Made by a program: the position numbers and the translations under genes. From Candidatus Aphodosoma sp. (GTDB taxonomy: Bacteria; Bacteroidota; Bacteroidia; Bacteroidales; Paludibacteraceae), in contig JAZOMI010000049.1 in the NCBI GenBank assembly GCA_045653825.1, forward strand, positions 1 through 58,716: a stretch of 58,716 nucleotides of DNA. The letters run 5' to 3'. The notes under the pieces were generated by a model, which was not told where the DNA came from, made no database searches, and saw only the letters and a list, made by a program, of their open reading frames with translations. Within the stretch, counting starts at the first letter, position 1; every line of letters starts with the position of its first letter. Positions 2,443 to 46,989 of this stretch are shown one piece after another.

Positions 2443-3693
2443 TTAATCTTCGAATTCTGCTTTCAACACAGCCAATACCTCATCGATAGTCTCTTCTTCG
2501 AGGTCTGAACGTTGAATCAACTCTTCACGAGTGAGCGACAACACGTTTTTAGCTGTATCGCAACCGATACCTTTCAATACATCAATAATCCAGCTATCGA
2601 TTTCATCGCTAAATTCATCAAGGTAAATATCTTCTTCATCCACTTCAACGTCGTTACGGAATACATCGATTGTATAACCTGTAAGCATTGTAGCCAATTT
2701 GATGTTGTTACCGTTTTTACCGATAGCGAGCGAAATCTCTTCTGGGCGAAGATATACGTTTGCTTTTTTGTTTTCTTCGTCAAGCTCAATAGTTTGCACT
2801 TTCGCTGGGCTCAATGCGCGAGCGATATAAAGGCTTGGATTTGCTGTATAGTTGATAACGTCGATATTTTCGTTGCGCAATTCACGCACAATACCATGAA
2901 TACGAGCACCTTTCATACCCACACATGCTCCTACTGGGTCAATACGGTCGTCGAACGACTCAACAGCCACTTTCGCACGCTCACCAGGAATACGTACCAC
3001 CTTCTTGATAGTAATCAAACCGTCGTGAATTTCAGGCACCTCTTGTTCGATAAGACGTTCCAAGAACAAAGGTGAAGTACGCGAAAGATAGATTTTTGGA
3101 TTATTATTTTTATTATCTACACGAAGCACAACCGCACGAATAGGTTCGCCTTTACGATAGAAATCATTAGGAATTTGCTCTTGTTTTGGAAGAAGCATTT
3201 CATTTTTATCCTCATCCAAAATAAGCACCTCTTTCTTCCACACTTGATAAACATCGCCAGTCACCACTTGACCAATAATATCAGCATATCTCTCATAGAG
3301 AGCCTCTTTTTGAAGTTCGAGAATACGAGATGCCAAAGTTTGACGAAGATTGAGAACGGCACGACGTCCAAAACTCAAAAACTCTACTTTATCCACAACC
3401 TCTTCGCCCACTTCATAGTCTTCATCTATCTCTTGAGCTGCACTAAGTGCAATCTCCATGCTTTCATTTTCCAATTCATCGTCCTCAACGATAGTACGTG
3501 TACGAAGAATTTCGCAGTCACCTGTCTCAGGATTGATAATCACATCATAGTTCTCATCTGTTCCATACATCTTAGCAATCACACTACGGAACGAATCTTC
3601 CAAAATACTGATCAATGTAGAACGATCAATCGCCTTCAAATCTTTGAACTCCGAAAAGGTTTCAATAAGATTTACTTTCTCTTTTTTAGCCAT
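2443..3693 (-). CDS. nusA: transcription termination/antitermination factor NusA
   Basis: 416 aa ORF with the typical NusA N-terminus (LIETFSEFKDLKAIDRSTLISILEDSFRSVIAKMYG), S1/KH region, and position between rimP and infB. Confidence 0.95.
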   Translation of the reverse strand: MAKKEKVNLIETFSEFKDLKAIDRSTLISILEDSFRSVIAKMYGTDENYDVIINPETGDCEILRTRTIVEDDELENESMEIALSAAQEIDEDYEVGEEVVDKVEFLSFGRRAVLNLRQTLASRILELQKEALYERYADIIGQVVTGDVYQVWKKEVLILDEDKNEMLLPKQEQIPNDFYRKGEPIRAVVLRVDNKNNNPKIYLSRTSPLFLERLIEQEVPEIHDGLITIKKVVRIPGERAKVAVESFDDRIDPVGACVGMKGARIHGIVRELRNENIDVINYTANPSLYIARALSPAKVQTIELDEENKKANVYLRPEEISLAIGKNGNNIKLATMLTGYTIDVFRNDVEVDEEDIYLDEFSDEIDSWIIDVLKGIGCDTAKNVLSLTREELIQRSDLEEETIDEVLAVLKAEFED

Positions 3694-3773
3694 TTTTTCA
3701 AGTTGAAAATTGAAAATTGAAAGTTGAAAGTTAATACCTACGGCAAAATTTCAAATTTCAAATTTCAAATTAA
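3694..3773. repeat. intergenic heptamer-word array (TGAAAAT/TGAAAGT then AAATTTC words)
   Basis: Period-7 tandem repeats. The two halves are near reverse complements around a short unique centre. Confidence 0.8.
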
Positions 3774-14166: not shown

Positions 14167-15048
14167 ATGTTAACAGAAGAACAAAAACAGAGAATAGCCG
14201 AAGCGATGGTGTTGCGCCGTGAGATGTTTGCGGGCACGGATTCGCAATGGGCATTGTCGTTGGGCATCAATGCCTCGGTATATAATCGCATCAAGCGCGG
14301 TGAGCGCGAGCGCGTGTTGGCAGATGCGAAATGGATAACGATAGCACGCTTGTTGGAGGTGGAGCTGTCGACAGCTTCGCCATGGAACACAGCACGCACG
14401 GCGGTGTTTGTCAGCGTGACGGCGCAGTTGCAGTTTTGCCAAGAGAACTCGTCGTGGGCGATACTATGCGACGAAGCTGGTATTGGGAAGACCTATGCAG
14501 CACGCTACTACTCGCGCACGAACAAGAATGTGGTGTATGTGGATTGTTCGCAACACAAGACTCGTCGCCGCCTCATGATAGAGATAGCACGAGCGCTGGG
14601 CGTTGACACCCACGGGACGTATTACGAAGTGTTTGACGACTTGCGCTACTACATCAAGACGATAGACCATCCACTGATTATTCTCGACGAAGCAGGCGAT
14701 CTGCGCTATGAGGCGTTTTTGGAAGTGAAGGCGTTGTGGAATGCGGTGGAGAACTGTTGCGGTATCTACATGCTCGGCGCTGATGGACTACGAGCAAAGA
14801 TAGAGCGAGGCATCAACTGCAGGAAGGTGGGTTTTGTGGAGCTCTTCGACCGTCAGGGGGCACGCTTCCAGCGCATCACGCCCGAAGGCCGAGAGGCACG
14901 CCAAGAGTTTCATGCTGCACAAGCAGCTGCTGTGATACGCGCCAATGCACCAGCCGACACCGACATACGAGCCATGCTTGCCGCTACTGACTGCCGACTT
15001 AGGAGGATATATATTGAGGTGAAGAAAAGAATGAGGAATGAGGAGTGA
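14167..15048 (+). CDS. MuB/TniB-like AAA+ ATPase with N-terminal HTH (transposition target-selection type)
   Basis: 293 aa with Walker A DEAGIGKT, Walker B LIILDEAG, and an N-terminal HTH-like WALSLGINASVYNRIKRG. Adjacent to the DDE transposase. Confidence 0.7.
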   Translation: MLTEEQKQRIAEAMVLRREMFAGTDSQWALSLGINASVYNRIKRGERERVLADAKWITIARLLEVELSTASPWNTARTAVFVSVTAQLQFCQENSSWAILCDEAGIGKTYAARYYSRTNKNVVYVDCSQHKTRRRLMIEIARALGVDTHGTYYEVFDDLRYYIKTIDHPLIILDEAGDLRYEAFLEVKALWNAVENCCGIYMLGADGLRAKIERGINCRKVGFVELFDRQGARFQRITPEGREARQEFHAAQAAAVIRANAPADTDIRAMLAATDCRLRRIYIEVKKRMRNEE

Positions 15049-15129: not shown

Positions 15130-17136
15130 ATGGAGTATTACAATAACATATTATGCTTGACTTATGACGAGATGCTTGAGTTGATGCCAAAGGGCACGCT
15201 TGGGTCGTTGTGTTCGCGGGGCAAGGTGGAGCGTGTTCGCCGAGCGAGCTATGAGCGTAGTGCGTTGTATTCATTGGACAATGCTCCGCAACGAATAAGG
15301 ATTATGGCATACGAGCGATTTCCCGAACTGAACGAAGCAGCGACGAGCCGAGATGCGCTGGAGGGGTATGGATTGATGGAGCGCGAGATGCTCCCCGACA
15401 TGGCAGCGGTTGAGTATTACGCCAGCTACATCACTCCGATGGGCGAGCACTTGACCGACACGAAGCAAGCCGAGTATGTGAACAATGCGATGATACTGAA
15501 TGCGTGCACACGGTTGTGGCAACGGTCGTACTCGCAACATGCACGTCAGGGGCGAGCGCGTCAGATGCCAGCGAAGGGCGAGTTTTGGGAGCGCACAGCT
15601 CGCGCCTTGCCACGCTTGGCAGAGCGATGGCCACACTCGTTGCCGATGAACGCTCGTAGATTGCAGACGAAGCACAAGGAGTATCAGCATGTAGGGTATG
15701 CCTCGTTGGTGAATGGTCGCTTCGGCAACAGCAATTCGCGCAAAGTGACGGCAGAGATAGAGCAGCTCATCATGTCGATATATTCGACATCGGGCAAGCG
15801 ATTCGTGACAGAGACATTGGCCGTGTATGAGCAATGGTTGGCTGGCAAGATAGAGATAGTGAACCAAGCGACAGGCGAACTGTTCGACCGCACAGGTGCG
15901 CCGAAGATAACCGAATCTACAGTGCACAACGTGGTGAACACGCCACAGAACCGTCGCATAGCCGACCTCCGACGCAACGACACGCTCTACAACAAGTCGC
16001 ACCACACGCCACACGTTGTGCGCCATGCGCCACAATACGCATTCTCGAAAATATCGATGGACGACCGCGACCTCACACGCAAGACCACGGCAGGCGAGCG
16101 CATATCTGCCTACTATGCTTACGATGTAGCAAGTGGATGTGTGATAGCTGCAGCCTATAGCAAGCAGAAAGACATGGAGCTTGTGTTGGAGTGTTTCCGC
16201 GACATGTTTCGTTTCATCACACGGCACAACCTACGCATGCCGTACGAAGTGGAGGTAGAGCACCACTTGATGAACAACATTAAGGAAGAGCTTGAGGTGA
16301 TGTTTCCAGCCGTGAGGTTCTGCCAAGCGGGTAACTCGCAAGAGAAGCGAGCCGAGCACCTGAACCGAGCGAAGAAATACTCAGCCGAGAAGCAGCTTGG
16401 GCAAGTGGTCGGTCGATGGTGGGCACGATCGGAGGCATATCGCGAGCGGTCGGAGCGTGTGGGTGCCGAATACAAAGAGCAACGATTGCCGTACAGCAAG
16501 TTGGTAGCCGAAGACCTCGAGGCGATAGCACTCTACAATTCGCAATGCAAGCCAGGCGAAACACGCTCGAGACTCGAGGTGCTGCTCACCACCCAGAACC
16601 CAAACCTACAAGAGGTGAACCGAGCCGTGATAATGCGCTCGATAGGCCACCGAACCGAAACCACATTGCGCCGCTCGCAATACGTACAAGTGCAATATGC
16701 GCGCTACCAATTGCCCGACCCAACGATGATAAGCCGTTTTCGCGAAGGGAACAGTTGCACCGCCTATTGGCTCGAAGCCGACGATGGCACAATACCGAGC
16801 GTGATACTCTACCAAGGCGACCGCTTCATAGCCGAATGCAAGAAGATGACCACCTTCAACGAGTCGATAGCCGAGCGCACAGCCGAAGATGAAGCAGCAA
16901 TGACCGAGCAACTGAAGTATGTAGCCCAATACCACAAGATGAACCGCCTCGGACGCGAAGAGAAGATACGCAACCTTAGCATCATCGACAACGCACAGGT
17001 GGAAGAAGCAATAGCCAAGGCGAGCGACGAAGAGGTAGTAATGCAACCCCTCCCACCTGACGACCCATATCACATTGCATCGATCGACACCACCGATGAC
17101 GGCGATTGGCTCGAAAGAGCGATAAAAAGTTTGTAA
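15130..17136 (+). CDS. Mu-like DDE transposase
   Basis: 668 aa (MuA-like size) with an rve-type core signature ISMDDRDLTRKTTAGERISAYYAYDVASGCVIAA. Context next to the AAA+ gene and inside the inverted end sites. Confidence 0.75.
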   Translation: MEYYNNILCLTYDEMLELMPKGTLGSLCSRGKVERVRRASYERSALYSLDNAPQRIRIMAYERFPELNEAATSRDALEGYGLMEREMLPDMAAVEYYASYITPMGEHLTDTKQAEYVNNAMILNACTRLWQRSYSQHARQGRARQMPAKGEFWERTARALPRLAERWPHSLPMNARRLQTKHKEYQHVGYASLVNGRFGNSNSRKVTAEIEQLIMSIYSTSGKRFVTETLAVYEQWLAGKIEIVNQATGELFDRTGAPKITESTVHNVVNTPQNRRIADLRRNDTLYNKSHHTPHVVRHAPQYAFSKISMDDRDLTRKTTAGERISAYYAYDVASGCVIAAAYSKQKDMELVLECFRDMFRFITRHNLRMPYEVEVEHHLMNNIKEELEVMFPAVRFCQAGNSQEKRAEHLNRAKKYSAEKQLGQVVGRWWARSEAYRERSERVGAEYKEQRLPYSKLVAEDLEAIALYNSQCKPGETRSRLEVLLTTQNPNLQEVNRAVIMRSIGHRTETTLRRSQYVQVQYARYQLPDPTMISRFREGNSCTAYWLEADDGTIPSVILYQGDRFIAECKKMTTFNESIAERTAEDEAAMTEQLKYVAQYHKMNRLGREEKIRNLSIIDNAQVEEAIAKASDEEVVMQPLPPDDPYHIASIDTTDDGDWLERAIKSL

Positions 17137-18549: not shown

Positions 18550-19053
18550 ATGAGAAAGAAAATTCAAAAAATGGACCGCATCAGCGATGCAGAAATGTAT
18601 GTAGCGATGCAACAGTATGCTGAAATTGACACACAGCTTGAGAAAGTAAATGCCCGTATTGATGCCGAAGTGGCGAAGGTTCGCGCGAAGTATGCCAACG
18701 AGATTGAAACCCTTGAGGCGAAACGTCAACACGAATTTGAAGTAGTAGAACGCTATGCAGAACAACATCGCGATACGCTCTTCCAACTCAAACGTTCGCA
18801 CGTGACCGTGCATGGCACATTTGGTTACCGCTTGGGTCGTCCGAGCTTAGTGCTCACTAATCCGATGGTGAAATGGGACAAAGGCGTGCTCGAGCACATG
18901 CGCAACTTTGCGCCACAATACATCCGCACCGTGGAAGAGGTGGATAAAACTCGCCTCATAGCCGACCGCGAGAAACCCGAAGTGCAAGCATTGATGCAAG
19001 CGGCACACATCAAGGTGGAACAATCGGAGACATTCTACATTAAAAAGATTTAG
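18550..19053 (+). CDS. gam: host-nuclease inhibitor Gam-family protein
   Basis: 167 aa with an N-terminal coiled coil (IDAEVAKVRAKYANEIETLEAKRQHEFEVVERYAEQHRDTLF), typical of Mu Gam-like proteins. Confidence 0.6.
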   Translation: MRKKIQKMDRISDAEMYVAMQQYAEIDTQLEKVNARIDAEVAKVRAKYANEIETLEAKRQHEFEVVERYAEQHRDTLFQLKRSHVTVHGTFGYRLGRPSLVLTNPMVKWDKGVLEHMRNFAPQYIRTVEEVDKTRLIADREKPEVQALMQAAHIKVEQSETFYIKKI

Positions 19054-21783: not shown

Positions 21784-22020
21784 TTAAATTTCTATGCAAA
21801 ACGCATGACACACATACATCACACCTGCCGGATTGAGCAATTTGGCTCGAGGAGCATTGCCCAGCATCTCAAGTTGCGATTGATGAGGCTTCAGCCAACG
21901 AGCAAATGTAGTGGTCGATACACCAGCCGCACGTGCAAGTTCCGATTTCAACATAGCTTTCATTCGATTTGTATCAGGATTGTAGTCAGGTATTAAACGA
22001 TTTTTAAATACTATTTTCAT
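21784..22020 (-). CDS. DUF4248-like HTH DNA-binding protein
   Basis: 78 aa with LKSELARAAGVSTTTFARWLKPH. This family commonly neighbours amidases in Bacteroides (from memory). Confidence 0.5.
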   Translation of the reverse strand: MKIVFKNRLIPDYNPDTNRMKAMLKSELARAAGVSTTTFARWLKPHQSQLEMLGNAPRAKLLNPAGVMYVCHAFCIEI

Positions 22021-22035
22021 ACCATTTAAACTCTT

Positions 22036-22587
22036 TTAATACTTGCCACTTCGGGCGTAGCGTATCAGTACATCGGCAATGTGGCGAGCCACGTCGTGTT
22101 TGGTACGCTCGTAGGCTTCGGCATCGCGCTGGTTGGTGCAGAAGCATACTTCGACAATCATAGTGCGACAAGGGAGAGTGAGCATGCGCAGACCCTCACG
22201 GCCAGCGATGATTTCGCGTTTGACACCACGATTCTTGGTGCCCATGATGGAGCAGAGACCCACGAGCAGTTTTTCGCCCACTTGCCATTCGTCGGCGCTG
22301 TAGTCGTTAGACACGATGACCTCAGTGCCACACGCCTGCGGATTGCTGACGGCGTTGAAGTGGAGGTCAACGCAGATGTCGTATTCCGTCATCACGCCAC
22401 GCAGAGCACTGACAACGGCGGTGAGCGTGTCGCAGTCGGAGTTCTCCTCGATAGGCACTACGCCACGGAGGCGCAATTCGGTAGCGACCATATTGCGCAG
22501 TTCGATGTTGGCACGTCCCTCGTCGAAGTAGCCACGGGCACCAGTGAGTGCGCCATGGTGGCCAGCGATAACAGCAATTTTATACAT
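22036..22587 (-). CDS. N-acetylmuramoyl-L-alanine amidase (endolysin, Amidase_3-like)
   Basis: 183 aa with the motifs IAGHHGALTGARG and DLHFNA. Confidence 0.75.
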   Translation of the reverse strand: MYKIAVIAGHHGALTGARGYFDEGRANIELRNMVATELRLRGVVPIEENSDCDTLTAVVSALRGVMTEYDICVDLHFNAVSNPQACGTEVIVSNDYSADEWQVGEKLLVGLCSIMGTKNRGVKREIIAGREGLRMLTLPCRTMIVEVCFCTNQRDAEAYERTKHDVARHIADVLIRYARSGKY

Positions 22588-22747
22588 TGCGAGCCTCCTT
22601 TGTTTTGGTTAGTTTCGCTTCGGGTATCACCATTTCGGTGGCGCAGATGCCGCAACCATAGGCTTCAGCCTCCTCGATGGAAGCAAACTGTTGGCGGTCG
22701 ATCTCCTTGCCATGGTGTTTGTAGATGTAAGTTCTCATTTCGCCCAT
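22580..22747 (-). CDS. small hypothetical protein, translationally coupled to the amidase
   Basis: 55 codons (MGEMRTYIYKHHGKEIDRQQF...). Its stop overlaps the amidase ATG (ATGTATAA). Below the ORF-track size cutoff. Confidence 0.45.
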   Translation of the reverse strand: MGEMRTYIYKHHGKEIDRQQFASIEEAEAYGCGICATEMVIPEAKLTKTKEARNV

Positions 22748-22808
22748 AAGATTTTAAATTTTTTTCGTTAAGGGTATTGACATTTGATTGAAAATGTTGT
22801 ATCTTTGC

Positions 22809-22917
22809 GGTGCGAGTCAAACTGTAGGTTTTCTTTAGAGGGTTTTCTCTCTAGGAATTCCATCGATGGACCTTGGTATTGCTTAGCGTAGATCAAATTT
22901 GTTCTACGCTTTTTTTG
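22809..22917 (+). ncRNA. candidate small RNA C (promoter box to intrinsic terminator)
   Basis: TATCTTTG -7 box at 22800-22807. Terminator AGCGTAGA (22885-22892) / TCTACGCT (22903-22910) plus T7. No ORF. Antisense to the stop codon of 22904..23563. Confidence 0.45.
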
Positions 22918-23563
22918 TTGCCCTGTCTAGTTCTGCCATTGCTAGTAGAAACTCTTCTTCGGTATGTGCATGATATACACGTAATTCCCTATTTAGCTTT
23001 TTCATCTCTTCAGAAGCATTTTTGTATTTATAGGCATGCAATAGCCTTGAAACTTCCAAATGATGTGCTTTATAATGTTCTACTTCTGAATATTCTTCAT
23101 TCATTTGATGCCAAATCCAGAAGTCGCCTAAATAAAAGTCAAATTCTGCACGCACATGCCATATACGACAACAACCATTTAGTTCTATAATTGCCCAATC
23201 ACGGTAAGTTTTATGTTCTGCTACTATTTTAGCCCAAACAAAGTAGCTTTTTCCGCAGGCAAAACTATCGCTTTGATCTTCGTTAGCGATTACTTGTCGG
23301 CTAATGATAGTTTCAAGGCCTCTTACTTTTTTAGTTATAAATTTAGGCGTAATATATTTCACTTGTTCTACCCACATCTTTTTTATTTCAGAGCCTTGAG
23401 ATTCGTAACGCAGGCGCAATTTACGGCCTCTTGCTACAGAACGACCTTGTTTGCCTGGATACGGAGCTCCAAATACCGAAGTCAGTAGCGCACGTTCTTG
23501 ATCGGTTTCGGCTTCGATTTGCATCTGTGTAGTGCCTTTGTAGGGTTTAAATGTTGTTTTCAT
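22904..23563 (-). CDS. hypothetical protein (AT-rich moron)
   Basis: 219 aa from ATG at 23563 (MKTTFKPYKG). The 21 codons upstream in the track ORF are translated AATGCAC words and are excluded. No family recognised. Confidence 0.55.
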   Translation of the reverse strand: MKTTFKPYKGTTQMQIEAETDQERALLTSVFGAPYPGKQGRSVARGRKLRLRYESQGSEIKKMWVEQVKYITPKFITKKVRGLETIISRQVIANEDQSDSFACGKSYFVWAKIVAEHKTYRDWAIIELNGCCRIWHVRAEFDFYLGDFWIWHQMNEEYSEVEHYKAHHLEVSRLLHAYKYKNASEEMKKLNRELRVYHAHTEEEFLLAMAELDRATKKA

Positions 23564-23710
23564 ATTCTTTAAATTTTTAGTAGCGAGCTTTTTTTTAATG
23601 CACAATGCACAATTTTTAATGCACAATACACAATTGTTTAGGTTCGCCAGGGGTGAATAAAAAAAATTGTTAGTTATAGTTGGTAATTAGGAAAAATGTT
23701 GTAAATTTGC

Positions 23711-23785
23711 AGTCAGAAGAGTAAATGACTAACTTGACACGGGTGCTTGAGCCCCGCGGTTAGTCGTTTACTCTTCTTCTTTTTT
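23711..23785 (+). ncRNA. candidate small RNA A1 (19-bp terminal stem, apical hairpin, T-run)
   Basis: TAAATTTG -7 box at 23702-23709. Stem 23715-23733 / 23759-23777 with an inner hairpin CGGGTGC-TTGA-GCCCCG, then T5. Confidence 0.55.
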
Positions 23786-23854
23786 ATTCCTTTGGTAAAT
23801 ATTAATGTTTTTAGCCATATCCTTTGGTAATTTCAAAAAAAGTTGTAACTTTGC

Positions 23855-23954
23855 AGTGTCTTGACGGGTTCTTGCAATACAGAACAATCGGCGTGGGGCT
23901 TTGTGTCGCCACGCTTGTAAGTAAGATAACCACCCTTCGGGGTGGCTTTTTTTT
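23855..23954 (+). ncRNA. candidate small RNA B
   Basis: TTTG-N19-TAACTTTG promoter with the -7 box at 23846-23853. Terminator CCACCCTTCGGGGTGG (23930-23945) plus T8. Shares a CTTGAC..GGGT.CTTG motif with A1 and A2. Confidence 0.55.
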
Positions 23955-24024
23955 ATTCCCTTGGTAAATATTAATGTTTTTAGCCATATCCTTTGGTAAT
24001 TTTAAAAAAAAGTTGTAACTTTGC

Positions 24025-24100
24025 AGTCAGAAGAGTAAATGACTAACTTGATTCGGGTGCTTGAGCCCCGCGGTTAGTCGTTTACTCTTCTTCTTTTTTT
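24025..24100 (+). ncRNA. candidate small RNA A2 (near-identical copy of A1)
   Basis: Duplicate ~70-bp promoter module with the -7 box at 24016-24023. Stem 24029-24047 / 24073-24091 plus T7. The 3' arm covers the MuF stop codon on the opposite strand. Confidence 0.55.
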
Positions 24101-25368
24101 GCCATCAAGAAATATGGGTGCTCTTGCATTTTATCGTTATACTCTTTAGCATAGCATTTAACAACGAGAGTAATGCCATCGAACGGAACTTCGTATTTCA
24201 CGAAATATTTCATACCTACATTTACCTTGTCTTGGTAGTTAGGACGTTTTTCGTTCAGTTCTTCATATTTACCATTTTTCAATAATGGTAATATTTCGTT
24301 CATCCTCTTTACACATTCCACCTCTAACATTGAAATGCAGTGTGATATAATAGCACCAACATCATCCGATCCATAATATATATTGCCAGAATATATTTTG
24401 TCAGAGGTAAAAGTGATAGGAGGATTTTTCTTTAGTTGCTTTTTAACAACATCTCTATAGCGATAGAAACAAGGCACATTCTTATATGTCAGATTTCTCA
24501 TTGTTTCTATATTTTCCCTTTTTCGTAATACATTAAGCATCGCGCACGCTTGGCAGTTGGCGTTGCGAGGGTTGTATTTGAGGTTGAGGTTTGAGTCGCA
24601 GCCTTGGCACTGACCTTTGGGTGGGTAGTTGGTAGAGCGTTCGAATGCCTTGCGAGAGCGCCCCACATTGGTGCGGAAGATTTGGTTGCCTTTCTTCTCG
24701 GTGTAGTGGTTGCCGATGGCAATGGCTTCGTCGCTCGATAGTGTTGATTGGTACTTGCCACGGCGCACTTGCACAGCCGAGCAACGGCATCCCCAACCAT
24801 TGGGTGGGTAGTACGATTGCCAAAATGGGTCGGAAGGAGGGAGTGTGACGCCGTCGAGGTCGCGGTGTTCGGGGCGGACACGGTTGTCGCCCACGGTGCG
24901 ATATTGGAGGTCGTAGTGGTCGCCATCGCGCTCGATGTCGGCCCAATGCGCTGCCATTTGAGCCACTTGAGAGGCGTGTTGATATTCGGCACGGAGGTTC
25001 AACCCCTGTTTGCGGAACACATCGCCTGCCGCACGTTCGAACTCCTCATAGGGCAATATGCCACCATCACGATCGACTATCATCAGGCCAGCCTCCTCCA
25101 TGGTGCGCACCGCTTTCCAACCAGAGAAGATAAAAGCATTGTCGCGCAGCGCAGCTGTCAGTTCGGGCGACACCTCACGCTCTATTGCTCCAGTGCGCTC
25201 GCTACCTTGGTCGGCAGAGCCAGCCATATAGTCTGCCATACCCCTATCGATAGCATCGCAGATGATGCGATAGTTCTCCATGACGACAGCTTCGCCCTCG
25301 GAGGTGGTGAGCAGTTTGGGGCTGTAGCCTTTCTCCTTCCAGATACGGCGAATAGCATCGGCAATCAC
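24082..25368 (-). CDS. MuF-like head morphogenesis protein (SPP1 gp7 family) with an extra AT-rich C-terminal domain
   Basis: 428 aa with the core motif VGDNRVRPEHRDLDGVTLPPSDPFWQSYYPPNGWGCRCS. The track start at 25368 is GTG. The last ~150 codons (24082-~24540) switch to host-like AT-rich composition. Confidence 0.85.
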   Translation of the reverse strand: MIADAIRRIWKEKGYSPKLLTTSEGEAVVMENYRIICDAIDRGMADYMAGSADQGSERTGAIEREVSPELTAALRDNAFIFSGWKAVRTMEEAGLMIVDRDGGILPYEEFERAAGDVFRKQGLNLRAEYQHASQVAQMAAHWADIERDGDHYDLQYRTVGDNRVRPEHRDLDGVTLPPSDPFWQSYYPPNGWGCRCSAVQVRRGKYQSTLSSDEAIAIGNHYTEKKGNQIFRTNVGRSRKAFERSTNYPPKGQCQGCDSNLNLKYNPRNANCQACAMLNVLRKRENIETMRNLTYKNVPCFYRYRDVVKKQLKKNPPITFTSDKIYSGNIYYGSDDVGAIISHCISMLEVECVKRMNEILPLLKNGKYEELNEKRPNYQDKVNVGMKYFVKYEVPFDGITLVVKCYAKEYNDKMQEHPYFLMAKKEEE

Positions 25369-25502
25369 TTGAGAGTTGATTTCAAAGAGCTTCTCCTCGT
25401 TGGCGAGGGTTTCGAGCGTACCCCAAAGTAGAGCATTGGCTTCATCGTAGGCTTGGTAGTATTGTAGGGCTAACTCTCTCGAGCGGTGAGGGTCGTTAGC
25501 CC

Positions 25503-26750
25503 CTACACGAAAAAATCGTCGGCACGGATTAAATCAGCGGGCAAAGATGCGCCACCACGTTTGCCGATGATAGGCACTTTGTATTTGTCGATGAAATACT
25601 GTGGGTCGATTTCGTACTCTTGAAGCAAGAGGCGTTCGAGTTCGCGTTGTTCGCTGGCAGAGAACTGGAGTGTGTCGTCCCACTCGAAACGGCAACCCTC
25701 GAGCGGGAAACCGTGGCGCACCATCATAGGCAACAGTCGGTCGTTGATGATGTAGCCCATAGCACGGGCATCGCTTGCGCATAGGTTGTTGAACACCTCG
25801 AGGTGGGTTTCGGACTGCGAGTGAGAAGAACCATTGTCGATGGTCATCGTTTGACCGAGGATGGCTTTCGACATTTCGGAGTTGCAACGGTCGACACGTC
25901 GGTCGTAGACATTGTAGGCATCGCCACGCGAGGTTTCCTTGATATCGATAGATGTGCCTTCGGGGAAAATGCCCCACCCAGCAGCACCCATGTCGCGAAG
26001 CACGCCAGCGATGACGTTCCAATCCTGCTGATTTTGCGATGGCGAAGTAGCCACACGCATAGGCATGCCGAATATTTCGCCAAAGACATCCCAGTATGCC
26101 AACATATTCTTCTTAGCCAAGCATTGAGGTGCCACCTTGAGTAGCAGACCGAGGTCGTGAGCCTCGCCCACTTCGATGCACCAAAGCGAGAGGTCGCCTG
26201 TGCGGTAGGAAACACCAGAGTCGAGCGAGTCGTAGGTGTGGCGGAGTATCACGCCACGTTCGGGGTAGACGTGTTTACGAGGCACTAAGCGACAATAGGA
26301 GTAGCGTTTGCCCTGGGGCGATTCGACTACATTGCCAAACTCGATGAGTGAGTGGCCCCAATAGCGAGCATCGAGAGCAAGGTCGAGGAAGTGGGTGAAC
26401 CATTCGCTCTCGAAGAGTTCACGAAGCTCATCGTTGCGCTTGCCCTCGCGGTCGATGATGACGAAAGGCTTTTGTAGAGTGCGCCCCTTGCGCTGAGAGA
26501 TGCAACCAGTGAGGTGGTCGTCGATGAGGGCGTTGGTATATACATCGTAGAGTGGACCACGGCGAGGATTTTCGACATCGATAGCCGCTTGCCAAGCACG
26601 ATGCCAGTCGCCAATATCTTTTTTGGTGAGCGCATCGGTGCGTTGCTCAATGTTGAGCATGCGCTGACGGCGTTCGGCAGTGAGTTGTCCTGCCAAAGCA
26701 AGCATGTTGCGATCGTGCTTGCTGAGAAGTATGCGTTGTAGGAAATTCAT
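25503..26750 (-). CDS. portal protein (Mu gp29 / DUF935-like)
   Basis: 415 aa positioned between terminase and MuF. The N-terminal region (DIGDWHRAWQAA...LYDVYTNALIDDHLTGCISQRK) resembles DUF935. Confidence 0.8.
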   Translation of the reverse strand: MNFLQRILLSKHDRNMLALAGQLTAERRQRMLNIEQRTDALTKKDIGDWHRAWQAAIDVENPRRGPLYDVYTNALIDDHLTGCISQRKGRTLQKPFVIIDREGKRNDELRELFESEWFTHFLDLALDARYWGHSLIEFGNVVESPQGKRYSYCRLVPRKHVYPERGVILRHTYDSLDSGVSYRTGDLSLWCIEVGEAHDLGLLLKVAPQCLAKKNMLAYWDVFGEIFGMPMRVATSPSQNQQDWNVIAGVLRDMGAAGWGIFPEGTSIDIKETSRGDAYNVYDRRVDRCNSEMSKAILGQTMTIDNGSSHSQSETHLEVFNNLCASDARAMGYIINDRLLPMMVRHGFPLEGCRFEWDDTLQFSASEQRELERLLLQEYEIDPQYFIDKYKVPIIGKRGGASLPADLIRADDFFV

Positions 26751-26811
26751 AAGAGTGAGGAGTTAGGAGTTAGGAGTTAGGAGTGATGAGTGATTTAATT
26801 GTGCATTGTTA

Positions 26812-27228
26812 TCACCAATCGTATGTTTGTTTTTTCATTCCGCCAGCCATGCAAGGGAATGAGTTTTGGTTAGGACTCTCGCCAGCGAGAGGGAGCGAGG
26901 CGGTGACTTTGCCAGCTTGAGCGAGGCGTAGCCATTCGATGGTGCGTTCGTACTGTTCGGCACGATGGGCAGATGCCATTTTCTGAGGCAAACACTGCAC
27001 GAGGTAGTGGAGTGTTACGTTCACGCAGATTTGCACCAGGTGAGCATTGCGCTCGTTGCCAATAGCGGCATAGGCGCGGTCGATGTCGTAACGAGTGCGG
27101 AGGTAGCTGGCAACCTCCTCCATAGCGACACGTTCGGTACGGAGGCGTGTGGGAGTGTCGGCTTGTTGCAAAACCTCAAGTTCGCGAGGCGAGCAAACGG
27201 TGCGGTAGTCTTCTTCTTCGATGAACAT
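26812..27228 (-). CDS. Mu gp36-like protein (DUF1320)
   Basis: 138 aa. MFIEEEDY...AMEEVASYLRTRYDI fits the DUF1320 pattern, and the position between TerL and portal fits. Confidence 0.55.
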   Translation of the reverse strand: MFIEEEDYRTVCSPRELEVLQQADTPTRLRTERVAMEEVASYLRTRYDIDRAYAAIGNERNAHLVQICVNVTLHYLVQCLPQKMASAHRAEQYERTIEWLRLAQAGKVTASLPLAGESPNQNSFPCMAGGMKKQTYDW

Positions 27229-27286
27229 AAGAGTGAGGAGTTAGGAGTTAGGAGTTAGGAGTGATTTAATTGTGCATTGTGCATTG

Positions 27287-28828
27287 TCAATAAAGGTTTT
27301 TTGGAGATGGGCGGCGACCGATGCGAGGGGTGAAGGTTTCGTGGCGTGTGCGTTGTTGCAGGATGTAGATTGCGCCCTCGTCGGCATCGGGAGCATCGTC
27401 GTGTCCGCTCATGCCTTTTTCGAAAGCGAGTGTTTGGTCGAGACCAGCCAGCATATCAGGGTCTTTCTTCTTCTGTTCGTTGTAGAAGACCACGCCACGC
27501 TCCCAGAGAGGGCTGATGCTTTCGATGCGCTGAAACTTGTCGGGCTTTTTGCGGCGGTCGGCACGGATGGGGAGTTGGTAGCCACGACACTCGCCCTCAC
27601 GGCGGAACTCGTCGAGGATGATATCCTGAAGGAAATTGGCTTCGATGTAGTAGCTTGCGACGGCATGAGCAGCTTGCACACGCTCGTGTAGGTCGTAGAA
27701 CCAACGCACCATTTCGGTGACGGTGGTTTGTCGCACAAAGGCGTCGATGTGGTGTAGTTCGCCCGACTTGGTTTTGCCCCAGAGCTTGATAGCCTTGTAG
27801 TCGTTTTTGGTCGAAGCCTTGAACGAGGGGTCGCAGTAAGCCACAAGTTCGTGGTAGTCGCGCAGAGGCAACATGCGTCGCCAGCGCACCCAGTCGGCAC
27901 GGAAGACTGCACCCTCGGTGATAGGATTGTTCATCATCTCCTTTTGGAAGGAGCGGTAGCCCATGAATCGGGCTTGAGCTTCGACCTCTTCGCGACTCCA
28001 TTTGGTAGCCCACGACGGATTGCCTTGAGCATCGAGGGCATTGACACGAGTGACGTGGACGCCATCGGTTTGAGCAATGCGAGCGAGCACACTATTTTTG
28101 CCAATGAGGTTGCCAACCATGATGAAACGCCCACGGCCACCGTCGAGCGCACCAAACAGCGCCTCCTTAACCCAGTCGGTGAGACGAGAGACACGTTGAG
28201 GATTTTCGACAAGTTCGTCGTCGTCGAGGTCGTCGATGACGATATAGTCGGGACGATGAGAGCGGTAGCGCAACCCACGAGGCGACTGACCACGACCACG
28301 AGCAAAGAAAGCCACATCGTCTTGAGTGACGAATTCGCCATCGGTCCATTCGCCCTCCTTCTTCTGCACGCCAAAGTCTGCAATGTAGCGTTGGTTGAAC
28401 TCAAGTTCCGCCTGAATGTCGGAGAGCAGAGTGTTGGCATTGTCTTGCGACTTGCCCACGAGCACCATCACATTGAGCTGGCGTTGGCGTTGACACTTGA
28501 GCCATAGCGGAATCATCACATCGCAATGGGTAGATTTGGCATGGCCACGCGCCCACATAAACACAGCTTTGAGGTTAGGGTTTTTCTTCACCTTGTTGGC
28601 CGCTTCGATGTGGAAGGGAGCCGATGCTGTGATAGCACCAGTTTGGGGATTGGTGCAGTAGTGAGGGAAATAGTATTCCACAAAATAGGCATAATCCTTG
28701 CGAGCGCGCTCGATACGGCGGTCGCGGTCGGCAGGAGTCTCCTGTCGGTTGACAATGGTCATGCTCTGAATGGTCTTGCACAGTTCGCGCCAATCGGCGA
28801 GGGCTTTTTTCTTATTAGATAGATTCAT
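27287..28828 (-). CDS. terminase large subunit
   Basis: 513 aa with an ATPase region (MWARGHAKSTH, IVIDDLDDDE) and a C-terminal nuclease-like region. Follows the small subunit. Confidence 0.8.
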   Translation of the reverse strand: MNLSNKKKALADWRELCKTIQSMTIVNRQETPADRDRRIERARKDYAYFVEYYFPHYCTNPQTGAITASAPFHIEAANKVKKNPNLKAVFMWARGHAKSTHCDVMIPLWLKCQRQRQLNVMVLVGKSQDNANTLLSDIQAELEFNQRYIADFGVQKKEGEWTDGEFVTQDDVAFFARGRGQSPRGLRYRSHRPDYIVIDDLDDDELVENPQRVSRLTDWVKEALFGALDGGRGRFIMVGNLIGKNSVLARIAQTDGVHVTRVNALDAQGNPSWATKWSREEVEAQARFMGYRSFQKEMMNNPITEGAVFRADWVRWRRMLPLRDYHELVAYCDPSFKASTKNDYKAIKLWGKTKSGELHHIDAFVRQTTVTEMVRWFYDLHERVQAAHAVASYYIEANFLQDIILDEFRREGECRGYQLPIRADRRKKPDKFQRIESISPLWERGVVFYNEQKKKDPDMLAGLDQTLAFEKGMSGHDDAPDADEGAIYILQQRTRHETFTPRIGRRPSPKNLY

Positions 28829-28894
28829 AGGTTAGTGAGGAGTGAGGAATTAGGAATGAGGAATTAAAAATTCTCAATTCTCAACTCTCAACTC

Positions 28895-29350
28895 TCAATT
28901 TTCTTCGGTGAGGGTAAGGTTGTTGAGTTTTTCGGAGATGAAAAGGTCTTGGTAGCGATTCATCACCTTGACGAGTTCGGGGGTGAGTTCGGGGTCGAGG
29001 TTCATGCGATTGACGAGCCATTGGTTATAGACCGAGAAGACCTCGATGACGGTAACGATGTTGGTTTGGCGGTCGATTTTTTCGATAGCAGTAGCCGCTT
29101 TGCAGACCTCGTCGGCAGTCCAGTCGCCCGATTCGATTTTGTCGTCCAACTGTTGGAGCATTTTTTTGACGATTTCGCCACGGCTGACGGTTTTAGCAGC
29201 ACGGCGTTCGCTCCAGCCGTTGTCGTTGATCCATTTGTTGATGGTTTGGCGAGTGACGCCCACTTTTTCGGCAATCTCTTGTTGCCCCATGCCTTGCATG
29301 TAGAGCGCAAAAGCAAATTCGCGTTGCGCCTCTTTTGTCATTTTTGTCAT
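28895..29350 (-). CDS. terminase small subunit (HTH)
   Basis: 151 aa with an N-terminal HTH (QQEIAEKVGVTRQTINKWINDNGW). First gene of the leftward late operon. Confidence 0.6.
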   Translation of the reverse strand: MTKMTKEAQREFAFALYMQGMGQQEIAEKVGVTRQTINKWINDNGWSERRAAKTVSRGEIVKKMLQQLDDKIESGDWTADEVCKAATAIEKIDRQTNIVTVIEVFSVYNQWLVNRMNLDPELTPELVKVMNRYQDLFISEKLNNLTLTEEN

Positions 29351-29598: not shown

Positions 29599-29671
29599 AG
29601 CGGGTTGGAGCAGAGGTCAGCTCGCGGGGTTCATTCCCCCGAGGTCGGTGGTTCGAATCCACCACCCGCTA
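29599..29671 (+). tRNA. prophage-encoded tRNA with CAU anticodon (Met/Ile2-type) and an unusual U at position 37
   Basis: Hand-folded cloverleaf. Acceptor AGCGGGT/ACCCGCT, D arm GAGC-AGAGGTCA-GCTC, anticodon arm CGGGG-TTCATTC-CCCCG, variable AGGTC, T arm GGTGG-TTCGAAT-CCACC, discriminator A. Confidence 0.75.
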
Positions 29672-29727
29672 CAATTTTTACAATGCACAATTAACTCTAA
29701 ACTCTCAACACTCAACTCTAAACTAAA

Positions 29728-34257: not shown

Positions 34258-34692
34258 ATGGCAATAACAAACGGTATTCCACTAATCAATGGCGTGTCAT
34301 ACGCCTGGGCCGACATTGTATGTCTTGTAGCAGGCACACCTGTTACAGGCATCTCGGCAATCGAATATAGCGACCAACAAGAGATGGTCAACAACTATGG
34401 AGCAGGTCGCTACCCTGTGTCGCGCGCCAAAGGTCGCATCACTTGCGAAGCGAAAATCACACTCGACATGGACGAAGTGATTGCAATTCAAAACCGATCG
34501 ATCAATGGTCGATTGCAAGACTTGGCACCATTCCAAATTCAAGTGTCGTACATTCCCGATGGCGGTAAGATTGTGCACGATGTGATTCACAACTGCCAAT
34601 TCAAGTCGAACGCCCGCACATGGAAAGAGGGCGACACTCGACAAGAGGTAGAACTCGAACTCATCGTCAGTCACATCGACTGGGGAAAATGA
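34258..34692 (+). CDS. tail tube protein
   Basis: 144 aa positioned between the sheath and the chaperone pair. Confidence 0.6.
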   Translation: MAITNGIPLINGVSYAWADIVCLVAGTPVTGISAIEYSDQQEMVNNYGAGRYPVSRAKGRITCEAKITLDMDEVIAIQNRSINGRLQDLAPFQIQVSYIPDGGKIVHDVIHNCQFKSNARTWKEGDTRQEVELELIVSHIDWGK

Positions 34693-34838
34693 TATTAAAG
34701 AACAAGGTGCAGGGAATAGGGAGCAGAGAGCAATGCACAATGCAGAATTAAGAACCGAAGGTCTTTGAGCCTTTGGCGATAAAATTAAGAATTCTCACTC
34801 CTCATTCCTCATTCCTAACTAACCCTAACCTCTCAATT

Positions 34839-35156
34839 ATGAACATAATCAACGGAGGCGTTACAGAAGAACGCATTGCACAATGGAAAGTGCAACATCG
34901 TCGTGTGGCAGAAGTGTCGATAGAAGACGATGGAACAACGTATGTAGGCTATTTTCGTCGTCCAGATATGGAGACGATGGCAGCAGTGAGCAAACTATCG
35001 AAAACCGATGAGGTGAAAGCAGCTAATGCTTTGTTTGAAAACTGTTGGCTCGGAGGTGCTGACGAACTACGCCACGAGGCAGTGCTTCGCATGGCAGCAA
35101 TCGGTCAGCTCAACCAATTGATGGAGGTGAAACGTGCCGAAATAAAAAACTTGTAG
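34839..35156 (+). CDS. tail assembly chaperone (G-like, 0-frame product)
   Basis: 105 aa from ATG 34839. The track ORF start at 34773 lies in heptamer words. Sits directly upstream of the tape measure region. Confidence 0.6.
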   Translation: MNIINGGVTEERIAQWKVQHRRVAEVSIEDDGTTYVGYFRRPDMETMAAVSKLSKTDEVKAANALFENCWLGGADELRHEAVLRMAAIGQLNQLMEVKRAEIKNL

Positions 35157-35627: not shown

Positions 35628-37682
35628 ATGAGCACACAAAATTTTAACTATATTTTTAACATAACGGACAATGCTTCATCTACATTGAATGACATCAACG
35701 CCCATTTGACACAAGTGAGTCAATCAGCATCAAATGCAGTGTCAAGTTTCAGTGGTTTTGAAAAAACAGTAATATTTGCTAAAAATTTTGCTAATGTAAT
35801 TATGGGTGTTGCTAATGCTATAAGTTGCACTTTGGAGCCAGCTATAGCATTGGATTCATCGCTCAAAGACCTGTCGGCTATCACAGGCGAAACTGGTGAG
35901 GGGTTGAAGTTGATAGAGAAATATGCTCGTCAGTCGGCTCGCACGTTCGGTGGTTCTGCCGCACAGGCGGTGGAGTCGTACAAATTGGTGCTCTCGCAAT
36001 TGTCGCCCGAAATAGCCAAATGTCCTGAAGCATTGCGCTCGATGGGCGACCATATAGCCACACTCAGCAAAACTATGGGCGGTGATGCTACAGCAGCGGC
36101 TGAGGTGCTCACCACGGCGATGAACCAATTTGGTGTTGACCTCTCTGACCCGATTCGTTCGGCTGAAGTGATGGCTGAGATGATGAACGTGATGGCAGCT
36201 GCTGGTCGTGAAGGCTCAGCCGAATTGCCTCAAATCAAACAGGCATTGGAGCAGTGCGGTATGGCTGCCAAAGGGGCGAATGTCTCATTCGAAGAAACGA
36301 ATGCCGCAATCCAAGTGCTCGACAAAGCAGGCAAAAAAGGAGCTGAAGGTGGTGTCGCGCTTCGCAATGCGCTCACCATTCTCGGTCAAGGACGATTTAT
36401 GCCGAAAGACGTTCGGGAAGAACTCGCAGCTGCTGGCGTTGATGTCAATGTGCTTGCCGATAGTTCGATTCGTCTCACTGACCGATTGCGCATGCTTGCA
36501 CCTGTGATGAACGATGCTGCGTTGTTTGGCAAACTATTCGGACGTGAGAACGTTAATGCCGCTATGGCACTCGTGCAAGGCACTGCCGAAATCGACCGAT
36601 TGACCGATGCTATCGGCGGAACAAATACAGCCTACGAACAAGCTGAAATCGTTATGGACTCAATGGCTGAGAAACAATCGAGATTGAAAGCTGCTTTTGA
36701 TAATGCCTATATTGCTATATCGAAATTTACAGGTGGGGTTTTGATGCATATTCAAGCATGGGCTCCTGTGGCAACCGCATTAAGTGACCTTTATCCTATT
36801 GCAAATGGAGTATGGAACAGTTTCGTCAGACTCAAAACAGTCATGGCGACAGGTTGGCCAAAGGTAGTTGCCAACATTAAGGGTGCTGTCGTAGGAACTA
36901 TAATGAACATACAACTGCTCAATGCTTCGGCTACAGCTTCGGGTGGTTGGCTCAAGATGATGGGGCAAATGGGTGTGTCGGCGTGTCGCTCGATAGGCAT
37001 TGCTATCATGAACATCCCTATAGTGGGTTGGATTGCGGCTGCTGTGGCTGGGCTTGTAGCTCTATTCGCTACGTTGTGGGAGAAGTGCAAAGGATTCCGT
37101 GTGGCTGTATTCACCTTGTGGGAGGGAATCAAAGCTTTGTTCAGTGGTATTGGTGAATGGTTTGCCAATCTATGGCAATGGTTGTCTGGTGTGTTCGACC
37201 GCTTCATGGCGTTTGGCTCTAAAATCCTCGCTCCGTTTAGGTGGGCTTTCGGTCAGATAAAATCGCTATTCATACGTTTGTTCGACTGGATTACAGCCAA
37301 ATTCGATTGGCTGGTGGACAAAATCAAACGAATAGTGCCTAAAGATTGGCTCGCTCGTGGTCGTGAAGCCGCCGACCGCTCGTGGGCAAAAGATCATCCT
37401 GATGCATCGCCAACCGAACAACCTCTCATGACAGACACTTCGGCTCTCGCTCCTATGCCAACGATGTCGCCTATAGGCATCGGTTCGGACATCAACTCAG
37501 TGGGGTCTGCTTCAGCCGAAAAACATGGTGGTTCGATAAAAAACATCAATGTCAATATCGAAAGCCTCGTCGAACAATTCAACGTAACGACCAACAATCT
37601 ACAACAATCTTCATCACAAATAAAGGATATGGTGGCACGCGTGCTCATCGATGCCGTTAACGACTTAAACTATGCAATCTAA
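35628..37682 (+). CDS. tail tape measure protein
   Basis: 684 aa with a TP901-type core (LKDLSAITGETGEGL...), alanine/glycine-rich TM-like segments, and the expected position after the chaperones. Confidence 0.85.
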   Translation: MSTQNFNYIFNITDNASSTLNDINAHLTQVSQSASNAVSSFSGFEKTVIFAKNFANVIMGVANAISCTLEPAIALDSSLKDLSAITGETGEGLKLIEKYARQSARTFGGSAAQAVESYKLVLSQLSPEIAKCPEALRSMGDHIATLSKTMGGDATAAAEVLTTAMNQFGVDLSDPIRSAEVMAEMMNVMAAAGREGSAELPQIKQALEQCGMAAKGANVSFEETNAAIQVLDKAGKKGAEGGVALRNALTILGQGRFMPKDVREELAAAGVDVNVLADSSIRLTDRLRMLAPVMNDAALFGKLFGRENVNAAMALVQGTAEIDRLTDAIGGTNTAYEQAEIVMDSMAEKQSRLKAAFDNAYIAISKFTGGVLMHIQAWAPVATALSDLYPIANGVWNSFVRLKTVMATGWPKVVANIKGAVVGTIMNIQLLNASATASGGWLKMMGQMGVSACRSIGIAIMNIPIVGWIAAAVAGLVALFATLWEKCKGFRVAVFTLWEGIKALFSGIGEWFANLWQWLSGVFDRFMAFGSKILAPFRWAFGQIKSLFIRLFDWITAKFDWLVDKIKRIVPKDWLARGREAADRSWAKDHPDASPTEQPLMTDTSALAPMPTMSPIGIGSDINSVGSASAEKHGGSIKNINVNIESLVEQFNVTTNNLQQSSSQIKDMVARVLIDAVNDLNYAI

Positions 37683-45350: not shown

Positions 45351-46814
45351 TTAATTTCTTACCCTTTCAATTCGCATTGTATCAAGTTTCAGAAACAAAA
45401 ACAATAATATCGTAAAACTCAAAAAAGATGATCCTCCATAACTAAAAAATGGCAATGGAATACCAATCACAGGCACAAGCCCTATCACCATACCTACATT
45501 GATAAAAAGGTGAAATGCAAATATTCCTACAACTCCATATCCATACACTCGTGTGAAACGATTATCCTGACGTTCTGCAATATACAACAATCTATATAAA
45601 AACAATAAATAGACAATCAATACACCCGCACTACCCACAAATCCCCACTCCTCACCTACAGTACAAAAAATAAAATCTGTATGTTGCTCTGGTACATATT
45701 TCAATTTGGTTTGTGTTCCTTGCATAAATCCTTTACCCCAAAATCCACCCGAGCCAATAGCTATACGCGCCTGATTGGTATTATAACCAATACCTGTTGG
45801 GTCATCAGTCAATCCAAGTAAAAGTTGAATACGCTTTTGTTGATGTGTTTGCAACACATCATTAAATATATATTCTGATGAATAACAATAGCCTAAAGTC
45901 CCCAACAAAAATATAGCAATAAACAAATATGTACGACGCCACTTAATATATGCCAATACAAACAAATAAATCGCAGCACAAAGCGTAACTGCCAACATAA
46001 CATATACTAAATTATAACGCACAACCCATTTAAATAAAACCAAAGCTAAAACAAAAACACCCATAGGCACAAACGAAAGTATGAGCAAATGCTTTTTTTC
46101 AAATTGATATACCCTAATAAATATCAACATTATAACATACGAAATCAATAACCCTAAAAACAATCCCGTTGAAGCCCCTTCTACACCTAAAAATGGCACT
46201 ACGCTAAATCGCAAAACTACAATAAACAATAGTACAGCACAAAATCCTAAAGCAGGTATCAATCCTGGCAATCCCTCTCGATAAAGTAAAAAAATAAACG
46301 ATAAAAAAACCAAAGCTGATCCCGTTTCGCTCTGTGCCACAATAATAAACATAGGCAACAATATAAGCGAACAAACAATAGCATAATTTTTTGATGATTT
46401 CAATCGAAATTGAGGATGACTCATTACTTTGGCAAGAGCCAATGCAGTTATAAATTTCGAAAATTCAGCAGGCTGAATACTAAGAGGACCTAAAGGCAAC
46501 CACGAACGTGAACCCTTGATATCTTTGGCTACAATAAGGGTTACTATCAATAATATCAATATCAAACCATACAACAAATATGGCAGTGACATTATCAATC
46601 TACTATCGGTAAATAATATAATCAGCGCCATCACCAAACTAATACACATCCACACAAATTGCATCCCCGAACTACCATTCATGTCAAATATCGACATCTG
46701 ATATTCTGCAACACTAGCACCATATATATTTATCCAACCAAACACCACTAAGACGATATAAAAAAATACCGCCCATTTATCTAACGCTTGTATTACATTG
46801 AAATTTCTTGACAT
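45351..46814 (-). CDS. rodA: rod shape-determining protein RodA (SEDS family)
   Basis: 487 aa polytopic membrane protein with FtsW/RodA motifs (GSRSWLPLGPLSIQPAEFSK, TDFIF). Lies downstream of mrdA. Confidence 0.85.
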   Translation of the reverse strand: MSRNFNVIQALDKWAVFFYIVLVVFGWINIYGASVAEYQMSIFDMNGSSGMQFVWMCISLVMALIILFTDSRLIMSLPYLLYGLILILLIVTLIVAKDIKGSRSWLPLGPLSIQPAEFSKFITALALAKVMSHPQFRLKSSKNYAIVCSLILLPMFIIVAQSETGSALVFLSFIFLLYREGLPGLIPALGFCAVLLFIVVLRFSVVPFLGVEGASTGLFLGLLISYVIMLIFIRVYQFEKKHLLILSFVPMGVFVLALVLFKWVVRYNLVYVMLAVTLCAAIYLFVLAYIKWRRTYLFIAIFLLGTLGYCYSSEYIFNDVLQTHQQKRIQLLLGLTDDPTGIGYNTNQARIAIGSGGFWGKGFMQGTQTKLKYVPEQHTDFIFCTVGEEWGFVGSAGVLIVYLLFLYRLLYIAERQDNRFTRVYGYGVVGIFAFHLFINVGMVIGLVPVIGIPLPFFSYGGSSFLSFTILLFLFLKLDTMRIERVRN

Positions 46815-46989
46815 AATAAATAAAATTGAAAGTTGAAAGTTGAGAATTGAGAATTGAGAATTGAGAATTGAGAACCGAAGGTCTTTGAGCCTTTGGCGAT
46901 AAAATTGAAAATTGATAATTGAAAATTGATAATAAAATATTTAATTTCTAACTCCTAACTCCTAACTCCTAACTCCTAACTCCTCACTC
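46815..46989. repeat. composite intergenic unit: heptamer-word arrays flanking a hairpin word
   Basis: TGAAAGT and GAGAATT words, then GAACCGAAGGTCTTTGAGCCTTTGGCGATAAAATT, then TGAAAAT/TGATAAT words, then 5 x CTCCTAA words. Confidence 0.9.

Follow-up and report, generated by a model that had tools for sequence, protein, structure and literature searches.

How does a ribosome come to read the MuF gene of the Mu-like prophage carried by contig JAZOMI010000049.1 of Candidatus Aphodosoma sp. (GenBank assembly GCA_045653825.1; the whole stretch analysed, positions 1 to 58,716, is referred to as the window)? The MuF reading frame is in the -1 frame relative to that of the preceding portal gene; it is open from 25533 to 24082, and the open reading frame (ORF) finders place the MuF start at a GTG inside it. 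A first-pass annotation, made from the letters alone, had proposed that a -1 programmed ribosomal frameshift (PRF) joins the two proteins. Comparison with other genomes supports this proposal, as the heptamer, its phase, its distance to the portal stop and a downstream hairpin are conserved across ~150 diverged relatives, and a -1 PRF at the portal 3' end, giving a portal-MuF fusion beside the plain portal protein, is the probable answer, at a probability of roughly 0.8. The features on which this reading is built are the following.

25503 to 26750, minus strand: portal gene (0 frame), 415 aa and 47.7 kDa, with its TAG stop at 25505-25503.
25534 to 25536, minus strand: upstream stop of the -1 frame, six codons before the heptamer by translation.
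25509 to 25515, minus strand: slippery heptamer T_TTT_TTC (U_UUU_UUC), in the X_XXY_YYZ phase of the portal frame.
25495 to 25507, minus strand: 5' arm of the stem, UGUAG-G-GGCUAAC, with a bulged G at 25502; it overlaps the portal stop codon.
25475 to 25494, minus strand: loop of the stem, a variable linker in the -1 frame according to the alignment.
25463 to 25474, minus strand: 3' arm of the stem, GUUAGCCCUACA, kept in the close relatives L003-L011, its outer pairs being lost in L001 and L002.
25369 to 25515, minus strand: start-less coding stretch of the -1 frame, 49 codons, FFRVGAND...EINSQ, comprising the junction and the true N-terminal region of MuF.
24082 to 25368, minus strand: MuF ORF as called by ORF finders, from GTG 25368 to the stop, 428 aa, of which the C-terminal ~150 aa are variable.

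Both proteins belong to the families that their names imply: the portal protein matches Pfam Portal_Mu PF06074 (E=3.8e-73, 247 bits for a cut-off of 23.9) as well as the portal family PHROG 113, and MuF matches Pfam Phage_Mu_F PF04233 (E=1.3e-15, 58.5 bits for a cut-off of 29.6). The 3' end of the portal ORF reads GAC GAT TTT TTC GTG TAG on the minus strand, with a single GTG codon separating the heptamer from the TAG stop, and the first-pass reading of T_TTT_TTC at 25515-25509 as a canonical heptamer in portal phase is borne out base for base. The MuF frame is likewise, as had been claimed, the -1 frame and already open upstream of the slip site, translation giving 25533 as the position from which it is open. 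None of its 55 codons before GTG 25368 (49 counting from the heptamer) is an ATG, GTG or TTG, and the translation of this start-less stretch, FFRVGANDPHRSRELALQYYQAYDEANALLWGTLETLANEEKLFEINSQ, is the one that the annotation had quoted. Because the -1 frame has a stop at 25534-25536, initiation further upstream cannot enter it. GTG 25368 itself is a Val codon, in an alignment column that holds no conserved start in the wider family. Neither the window nor 12 close relatives carry a single-ORF portal-MuF fusion, as a TAG stop and a -1 offset separate the two genes in all of them. A lone in-phase heptamer within a 10-codon overlap is unremarkable by itself; the window combines such a heptamer with a -1 frame that stays open into a long, conserved coding region devoid of starts, which is the arrangement expected of -1 PRF.

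MuF-related matches number more than 500, at the least, both in IMG/VR and among the GTDB species representatives. From the best matches to the window's MuF, 160 further loci were taken (80 IMG/VR contigs and 80 GTDB species genomes, with MuF proteins 30-45% identical), the portal and MuF frames being placed by tblastn; 161 junctions, the window included, have the window's portal family. In 150 of these, T_TTT_TTC is in phase, its distance to the portal stop is exactly 10 nt and MuF occupies the -1 frame; the heptamer and the open -1 frame, whose conservation in related phages the annotation had named as a check on its claim, are thus both kept. Three junctions have T_TTT_TTT in phase and three A_AAT_TTT, the latter with a GC hairpin after 6 nt; with these variants, an in-phase X_XXY_YYZ heptamer is present in 156/161. 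Among the five that remain, L073, L076 and L143 retain heptamer and hairpin on inspection, and the portal gene of L159 is broken. Elsewhere in the related portal ORFs, TTTTTTC occurs twice in 187 kb (once in phase). The entropy is 0 over the heptamer against ~1.6 bits per site over the 30 nt upstream, a flank that is nearly free of constraint.

Conservation also holds at close range, in eleven further assemblies from several samples (L001-L011), in all of which the T6 run, the stem core and the TAG stop are retained. In the loop (window 25475-25494), these close relatives have a 21-nt insertion, a triple 7-nt repeat (TCTCGTG) by which the linker gains seven codons while the -1 frame is preserved. 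Of the ten substitutions found among them 3' of the stem, seven affect the third base of a -1-frame codon.

The hairpin that follows the heptamer had been described as an 11-bp stem with one bulged G. Stem and bulge are real: the RNAfold centroid (61 nt from the heptamer) pairs 25507-25495 with 25474-25463, 12 bp around one bulged G. The window's stem has a minimum free energy (MFE) of -19.4 kcal/mol and a z-score of -3.45, and none of 200 shuffled sequences folds equally well. The three outer pairs are broken in L001 and L002, and the conserved functional core of the stem is a G/C helix that starts 5-7 nt after the heptamer; a search of the element against Rfam gave no family match even at E <= 10. 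In the wider family, the 46 nt after the heptamer have a mean MFE of -17.5 kcal/mol compared with -8.4 kcal/mol in random windows of the same loci. A stem of at least 6 bp, four or more of them G-C, begins 4-8 nt past the heptamer in 92% of 132 distinct junctions, taken without preselection, against 6.7% of random positions; the modal spacer between heptamer and stem is 5 nt, as fits a downstream stimulatory structure.

The stem also covaries. In a preselected, ungapped set of 66 sequences, double-sided changes are found in seven of eight pairs, and none of 500 shuffles reaches the observed values. Pair 22:32 is AU in 28 sequences, UA in 20 and GC in 18, and another pair is CG in 48, GC in 12, AU in three and UA in two. 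With these paired changes the amino acid encoded there also changes, non-conservatively (E/L/V/A); the constraint that they reveal is therefore one on RNA pairing and not on the protein.

Downstream of the heptamer, the start-less stretch has a coding character of its own. Distant MuF homologues with their own called starts have an N-terminal pattern, YY.EYNEAL.SLY....L.....ELFTFD..V..AIK, that aligns with QYYQAYDEANALLWGTLETLANEEKLFEINSQVIADAIRR in the window, and the -1-frame translations of the family, taken from the heptamer, read FFR[LV]SP..DY.GLH.RY or ...Y.AFN.AL..LY, the codon after FF being CGN with a free third base. Judged by these alignments, the stretch is protein-coding in the -1 frame from the heptamer onward. 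The first ATG, GTG or TTG lies 3 to 64 codons past the heptamer (median 24) and occupies no conserved column; the annotation had stated that an independent ATG start for MuF in related phages lacking the slippery site would tell against it, and the family displays the opposite. Two other ways of entering the frame were considered and rejected. Near-cognate initiation upstream would need one of ATG, GTG, TTG, CTG, ATT, ATC, ATA or ACG in the codons that run from the -1-frame stop (25536-25534) to the YYQAY motif, where all are absent. Termination-reinitiation at the portal stop would have to use an overlapping -1-frame codon that is CTG, CTA, GTA, TTA or TTG depending on the lineage, that is, no consistent start.

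The same fusion would be obtained through a different mechanism if RNA polymerase added an extra U within the T run. The site is a T6 homopolymer, lengthened to T7 at three loci, and Winogradskyella phage Peternella_1 has A9 and A7 runs at the equivalent place, which would suit a slipping polymerase. However, efficient slippage by bacterial RNA polymerase usually needs runs of about 8-9 or more and has no need of a codon phase; the run here, T6, is shorter. Furthermore, the A_AAT_TTT found in three lineages is a canonical ribosomal heptamer and a poor polymerase-slippage run, neither the seventh base (C) nor the codon phase varies, and the conserved hairpin keeps the distance of 5-6 nt that is typical of elements stimulating ribosomal frameshifting, all of which makes transcriptional slippage a slim prospect. 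One extra T in the run would also unite both ORFs in frame, and in-frame fusions do occur in relatives, so the split could be thought to come from a one-base sequencing or assembly error in the T run or from a recent frameshift dividing an ancestral portal-MuF fusion gene, on its way to becoming a pseudogene. Such an artefact or decay is nevertheless very improbable, as T6 and an in-frame stop are found in 150 junctions of independent assemblies, among them the cultured isolates Prevotella falsenii DSM 22864, Hoylesella shahii DSM 15611 and Segatella baroniae DSM 16972 as well as a HiFi assembly, and as both ORFs are intact and conserved at 30-45% identity.

Alternatively, nothing might be recoded at all, MuF being made solely from GTG 25368 or another downstream start and the heptamer and hairpin having some other role, for instance in transcript stability, in translational coupling or in attenuation at the portal stop. 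The MuF start is indeed placed at a downstream GTG or ATG, both by ORF finders and in public gene calls, Bacteroidota have no need of Shine-Dalgarno sequences, and in Hankyphage an ATG follows the heptamer by 14 codons. Yet the 49 codons that precede the GTG show homology to MuF N-termini and undergo coding-type substitutions in the -1 frame, a start codon is conserved at no alignment column, and the closure of the -1 frame six codons upstream of the heptamer leaves no other entry. A stability hairpin moreover fails to explain why an in-phase X_XXY_YYZ stands at 156 of 161 junctions, and the absence of recoding is thus considered unlikely.

Several points weigh against -1 PRF as the account of this locus. 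The predicted fusion and the slippage behind it are drawn entirely from comparative and computational evidence. All the loci are homologous, so that the phase of the heptamer is partly inherited and not independently re-derived, and the 66 sequences used for covariation had been preselected, at least 7/8 pairs being required. In some relatives an in-frame start comes soon after the heptamer, as the ATG does in Hankyphage, and free MuF may be made from such downstream starts beside the fusion; in the window, initiation at GTG 25368 may be an additional route to MuF. An AlphaFold2 model of the extended MuF (from a 26-sequence alignment) has helices in residues 9-44 of the extension at a low confidence (predicted local distance difference test score, pLDDT, ~50-55) that neither supports nor weakens the reading.

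The cis-elements, their conservation and their covariation are observed; slippage itself and its efficiency are inferred. In the proposed -1 PRF, most ribosomes would read GAU UUU UUC GUG UAG and terminate, releasing the 415-aa portal protein. A fraction, held up by the GC-rich hairpin that starts ~5-7 nt downstream while tRNA-Phe occupies the P and A sites on UUU UUC, would slip one base back to UUU UUU and resume in the -1 frame (CGU GUA GGG ...), then cross 47 more start-less codons into MuF. The predicted product consists of portal residues 1-414 followed by R-V-G-A-N-D... up to the MuF C-terminus; its computed size is 889 aa and 102 kDa, in place of the ~95 kDa given by the first-pass annotation. 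The fusion would co-assemble with plain portal protein in the dodecamer, MuF being tethered to the inward-facing portal C-termini, and the frameshift rate would therefore set the MuF copy number, so that the frameshift probably fixes how many MuF molecules sit at the portal vertex. An efficiency of ~8-17% would give 1-2 MuF per ring, a figure that matches the 1-2 portal-bound gp7 copies per SPP1 capsid given in PMC5576092. MuF and its variable C-terminal cargo domain would then be packaged and, in the end, ejected with the DNA.

Portal and MuF are found as one polypeptide in other phages. The PHROG 35074 (890 positions) and PHROG 220 profiles match both proteins; Porphyromonas gingivalis phages (PP754929.1), which share with the window the gene order TerS-TerL-adaptor-portal(+MuF), encode a single 853-aa protein annotated 'portal' with both domains, and locus L076 has one open frame of 959 codons over both. 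Fused portal-MuF genes have also been described in Microbacterium phages of clusters EA3/EA5/EA8/EB (PMC7302621). These natural in-frame fusions show that a fused protein is compatible with assembly, and they hold the same two domains in the same order as the fusion predicted for the window. They differ from it in that the 0-frame fusion is their sole product, whereas the window has a conserved TAG, would need recoding and is expected to make two products.

Several of these other genomes have sequence features of interest at the junction. In P. gingivalis phage007a_Bg4 (PP754929.1, ~3650-3700; L172) and in L076 (2356-2400), the single ORF still contains, in phase, T_TTT_TTC, then a 6-nt spacer and the hairpin GCCCCG...CGGGGC; the -1 frame there stops ~20 codons on, so that a slip would give a portal-only protein, which makes the site either a reversed switch or a relic. 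Bacteroides phage p00 'Hankyphage' (BK010646.1, L174), a globally common gut phage, has at 2417-2450, in the portal 3' end, T_TTT_TTC followed by GGGAAA and a hairpin, GCCCCG-8nt-CGGGGC; its portal frame extends 13 codons further and its annotated MuF ATG, 14 codons after the heptamer, is in the -1 frame. Hankyphage may make both free MuF and the fusion. In the marine flavobacterial phage Peternella_1 (MT732475.1, 3632-3760; L173), A_AAA_AAA, with the A9 and A7 runs, is in phase just before the portal stop, and the -1 frame stays open through 36 codons without a start until the annotated MuF GTG is reached; it may be another case of this recoding, using a different heptamer, or else one of polymerase slippage.

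Neither Escherichia coli phage Mu nor Flavobacterium phages FPSV-S1 and pippi8-1 have the heptamer, MuF having its own ATG in all three; the signal is therefore lineage-specific and not general to Mu-type heads. A nucleotide search of cultured phage genomes gave only two short, unannotated matches, and the records of Hankyphage, the P. gingivalis phage and the Winogradskyella phage annotate their genes without recoding. The chances seem evenly balanced that Mu-like phages and prophages forming a large clade in Bacteroidota, Hankyphage among them, have a conserved -1 frameshift as the main or only route to full MuF, the protein then being attached covalently to a few portal subunits, and that the in-frame-fused lineages have kept the signal, a slip there yielding a portal-only product. 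Such clade-wide use would be a second widely conserved recoding event in the structural modules of tailed phages, after the tail-chaperone frameshift, and would determine how many copies of a pilot protein bearing cargo or toxin stand at the portal vertex.

A literature search found portal-MuF gene fusions and tail-chaperone frameshifts and no portal-MuF frameshift, an absence that is no proof of its being unreported. As predicted here, the event is a canonical -1 PRF mechanism placed on a new, widely conserved gene pair, portal-MuF. The -1 PRF sites of IS3-family OrfA/OrfB and of dnaX combine an X_XXY_YYZ heptamer, a 5-8 nt spacer, a downstream stem-loop and a nearby 0-frame stop, an architecture that the window's site shares. 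They typically have A_AAA_AAG and often an upstream Shine-Dalgarno-like stimulator, whereas none is seen in the window or expected in Bacteroidota, and their products are unrelated.

A known counterpart among phage structural genes is the -1 frameshift of the lambda gpG/gpGT tail assembly chaperones (Levin 1993; Xu, Hendrix, Duda 2004, cited in PMC7302621 and PMC8008677). It is likewise a -1 PRF found across many tailed phages, located towards the end of the upstream structural gene, and it likewise adds to a main, short product a minor fusion extended at the C-terminus, with a fixed stoichiometry as its presumed purpose. It differs in that the chaperone pair lies upstream of the tape measure gene, whereas portal and MuF are in the head/packaging module, and in its heptamer, G_GGA_AAG in place of U_UUU_UUC; the window's family further has a conserved downstream hairpin and, unlike lambda G/GT, a 0-frame stop one codon after the heptamer. 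The site does not belong to that frameshift family, as its genes are other ones, portal and MuF in the packaging block, and the window's tape measure gene (35628-37682) is on the other strand. Another known parallel is SPP1 gp7, of the MuF family, a minor head protein present at the portal gp6 in 1-2 copies per capsid (Stiege 2003, Vinga 2006, in PMC5576092). Its gene lies directly downstream of the portal gene, as in the window, but gp7 is a separate translation product whose binding to the portal is non-covalent, whereas the linkage in the window would be covalent and the copies set by frameshift efficiency.

The prophage occupies ~12000-45300 of the window, between host genes for nusA (2443-3693)/nusB on one side and ftsW/PBP2 (45351-48867) on the other, and its homologues indicate Bacteroidales hosts. 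It includes genes for a MuB-like AAA ATPase (14167-15048), Mu Gam (18550-19053), a gpS-like virion morphogenesis protein, a protease, a DUF2586 protein and the tape measure protein, and a 668-aa ORF at 15130-17136 is a transposase candidate without a Pfam match. The packaging block (21784-29350) is on the minus strand, inverted relative to the flanking plus-strand phage genes, in the order HTH/small terminase, large terminase, gp36-type adaptor, portal, MuF, two unknown ORFs and amidase. A tRNA-Met (CAT) gene at 29599-29672 on the plus strand lies between this block, whose small terminase-like gene ends at 29350, and the protease and capsid genes; it could be phage-encoded or could mark a module junction. 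The tail-chaperone region (34258-35156), which precedes the tape measure gene, was inspected briefly and gave no obvious second frameshift site.

At the other end of MuF, the C-terminal ~150 aa (24082-24550) are swapped among the otherwise 86-95% identical relatives P0001/P0003/P0004, and more distant MuF homologues carry PF18451 or PF18798 domains; the window's own MuF C-terminus has no Pfam match. This pattern suggests that the C-terminus is a polymorphic cargo or toxin module. MuF proteins with polymorphic cargo/toxin modules are described in PMC5576092.

If the -1 PRF at the portal 3' end is real, hundreds of MuF genes in phages and prophages of gut Bacteroidales are at present annotated with arbitrary, truncated N-termini, the trans-frame product being missing throughout. 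The event would also constitute a mechanism for targeting and counting a low-copy minor head protein, through a covalent tether and a copy number equal to 12 x the frameshift efficiency. Translation in Bacteroidota is unlike that of E. coli in having no Shine-Dalgarno-led initiation, and the site would provide a natural, conserved -1 PRF signal for this phylum (U_UUU_UUC, a 5-nt spacer and an 8-bp GC hairpin). Finally, as the MuF family has exchangeable, partly toxin-like C-terminal domains, the site may control the dose of cargo carried by each virion.

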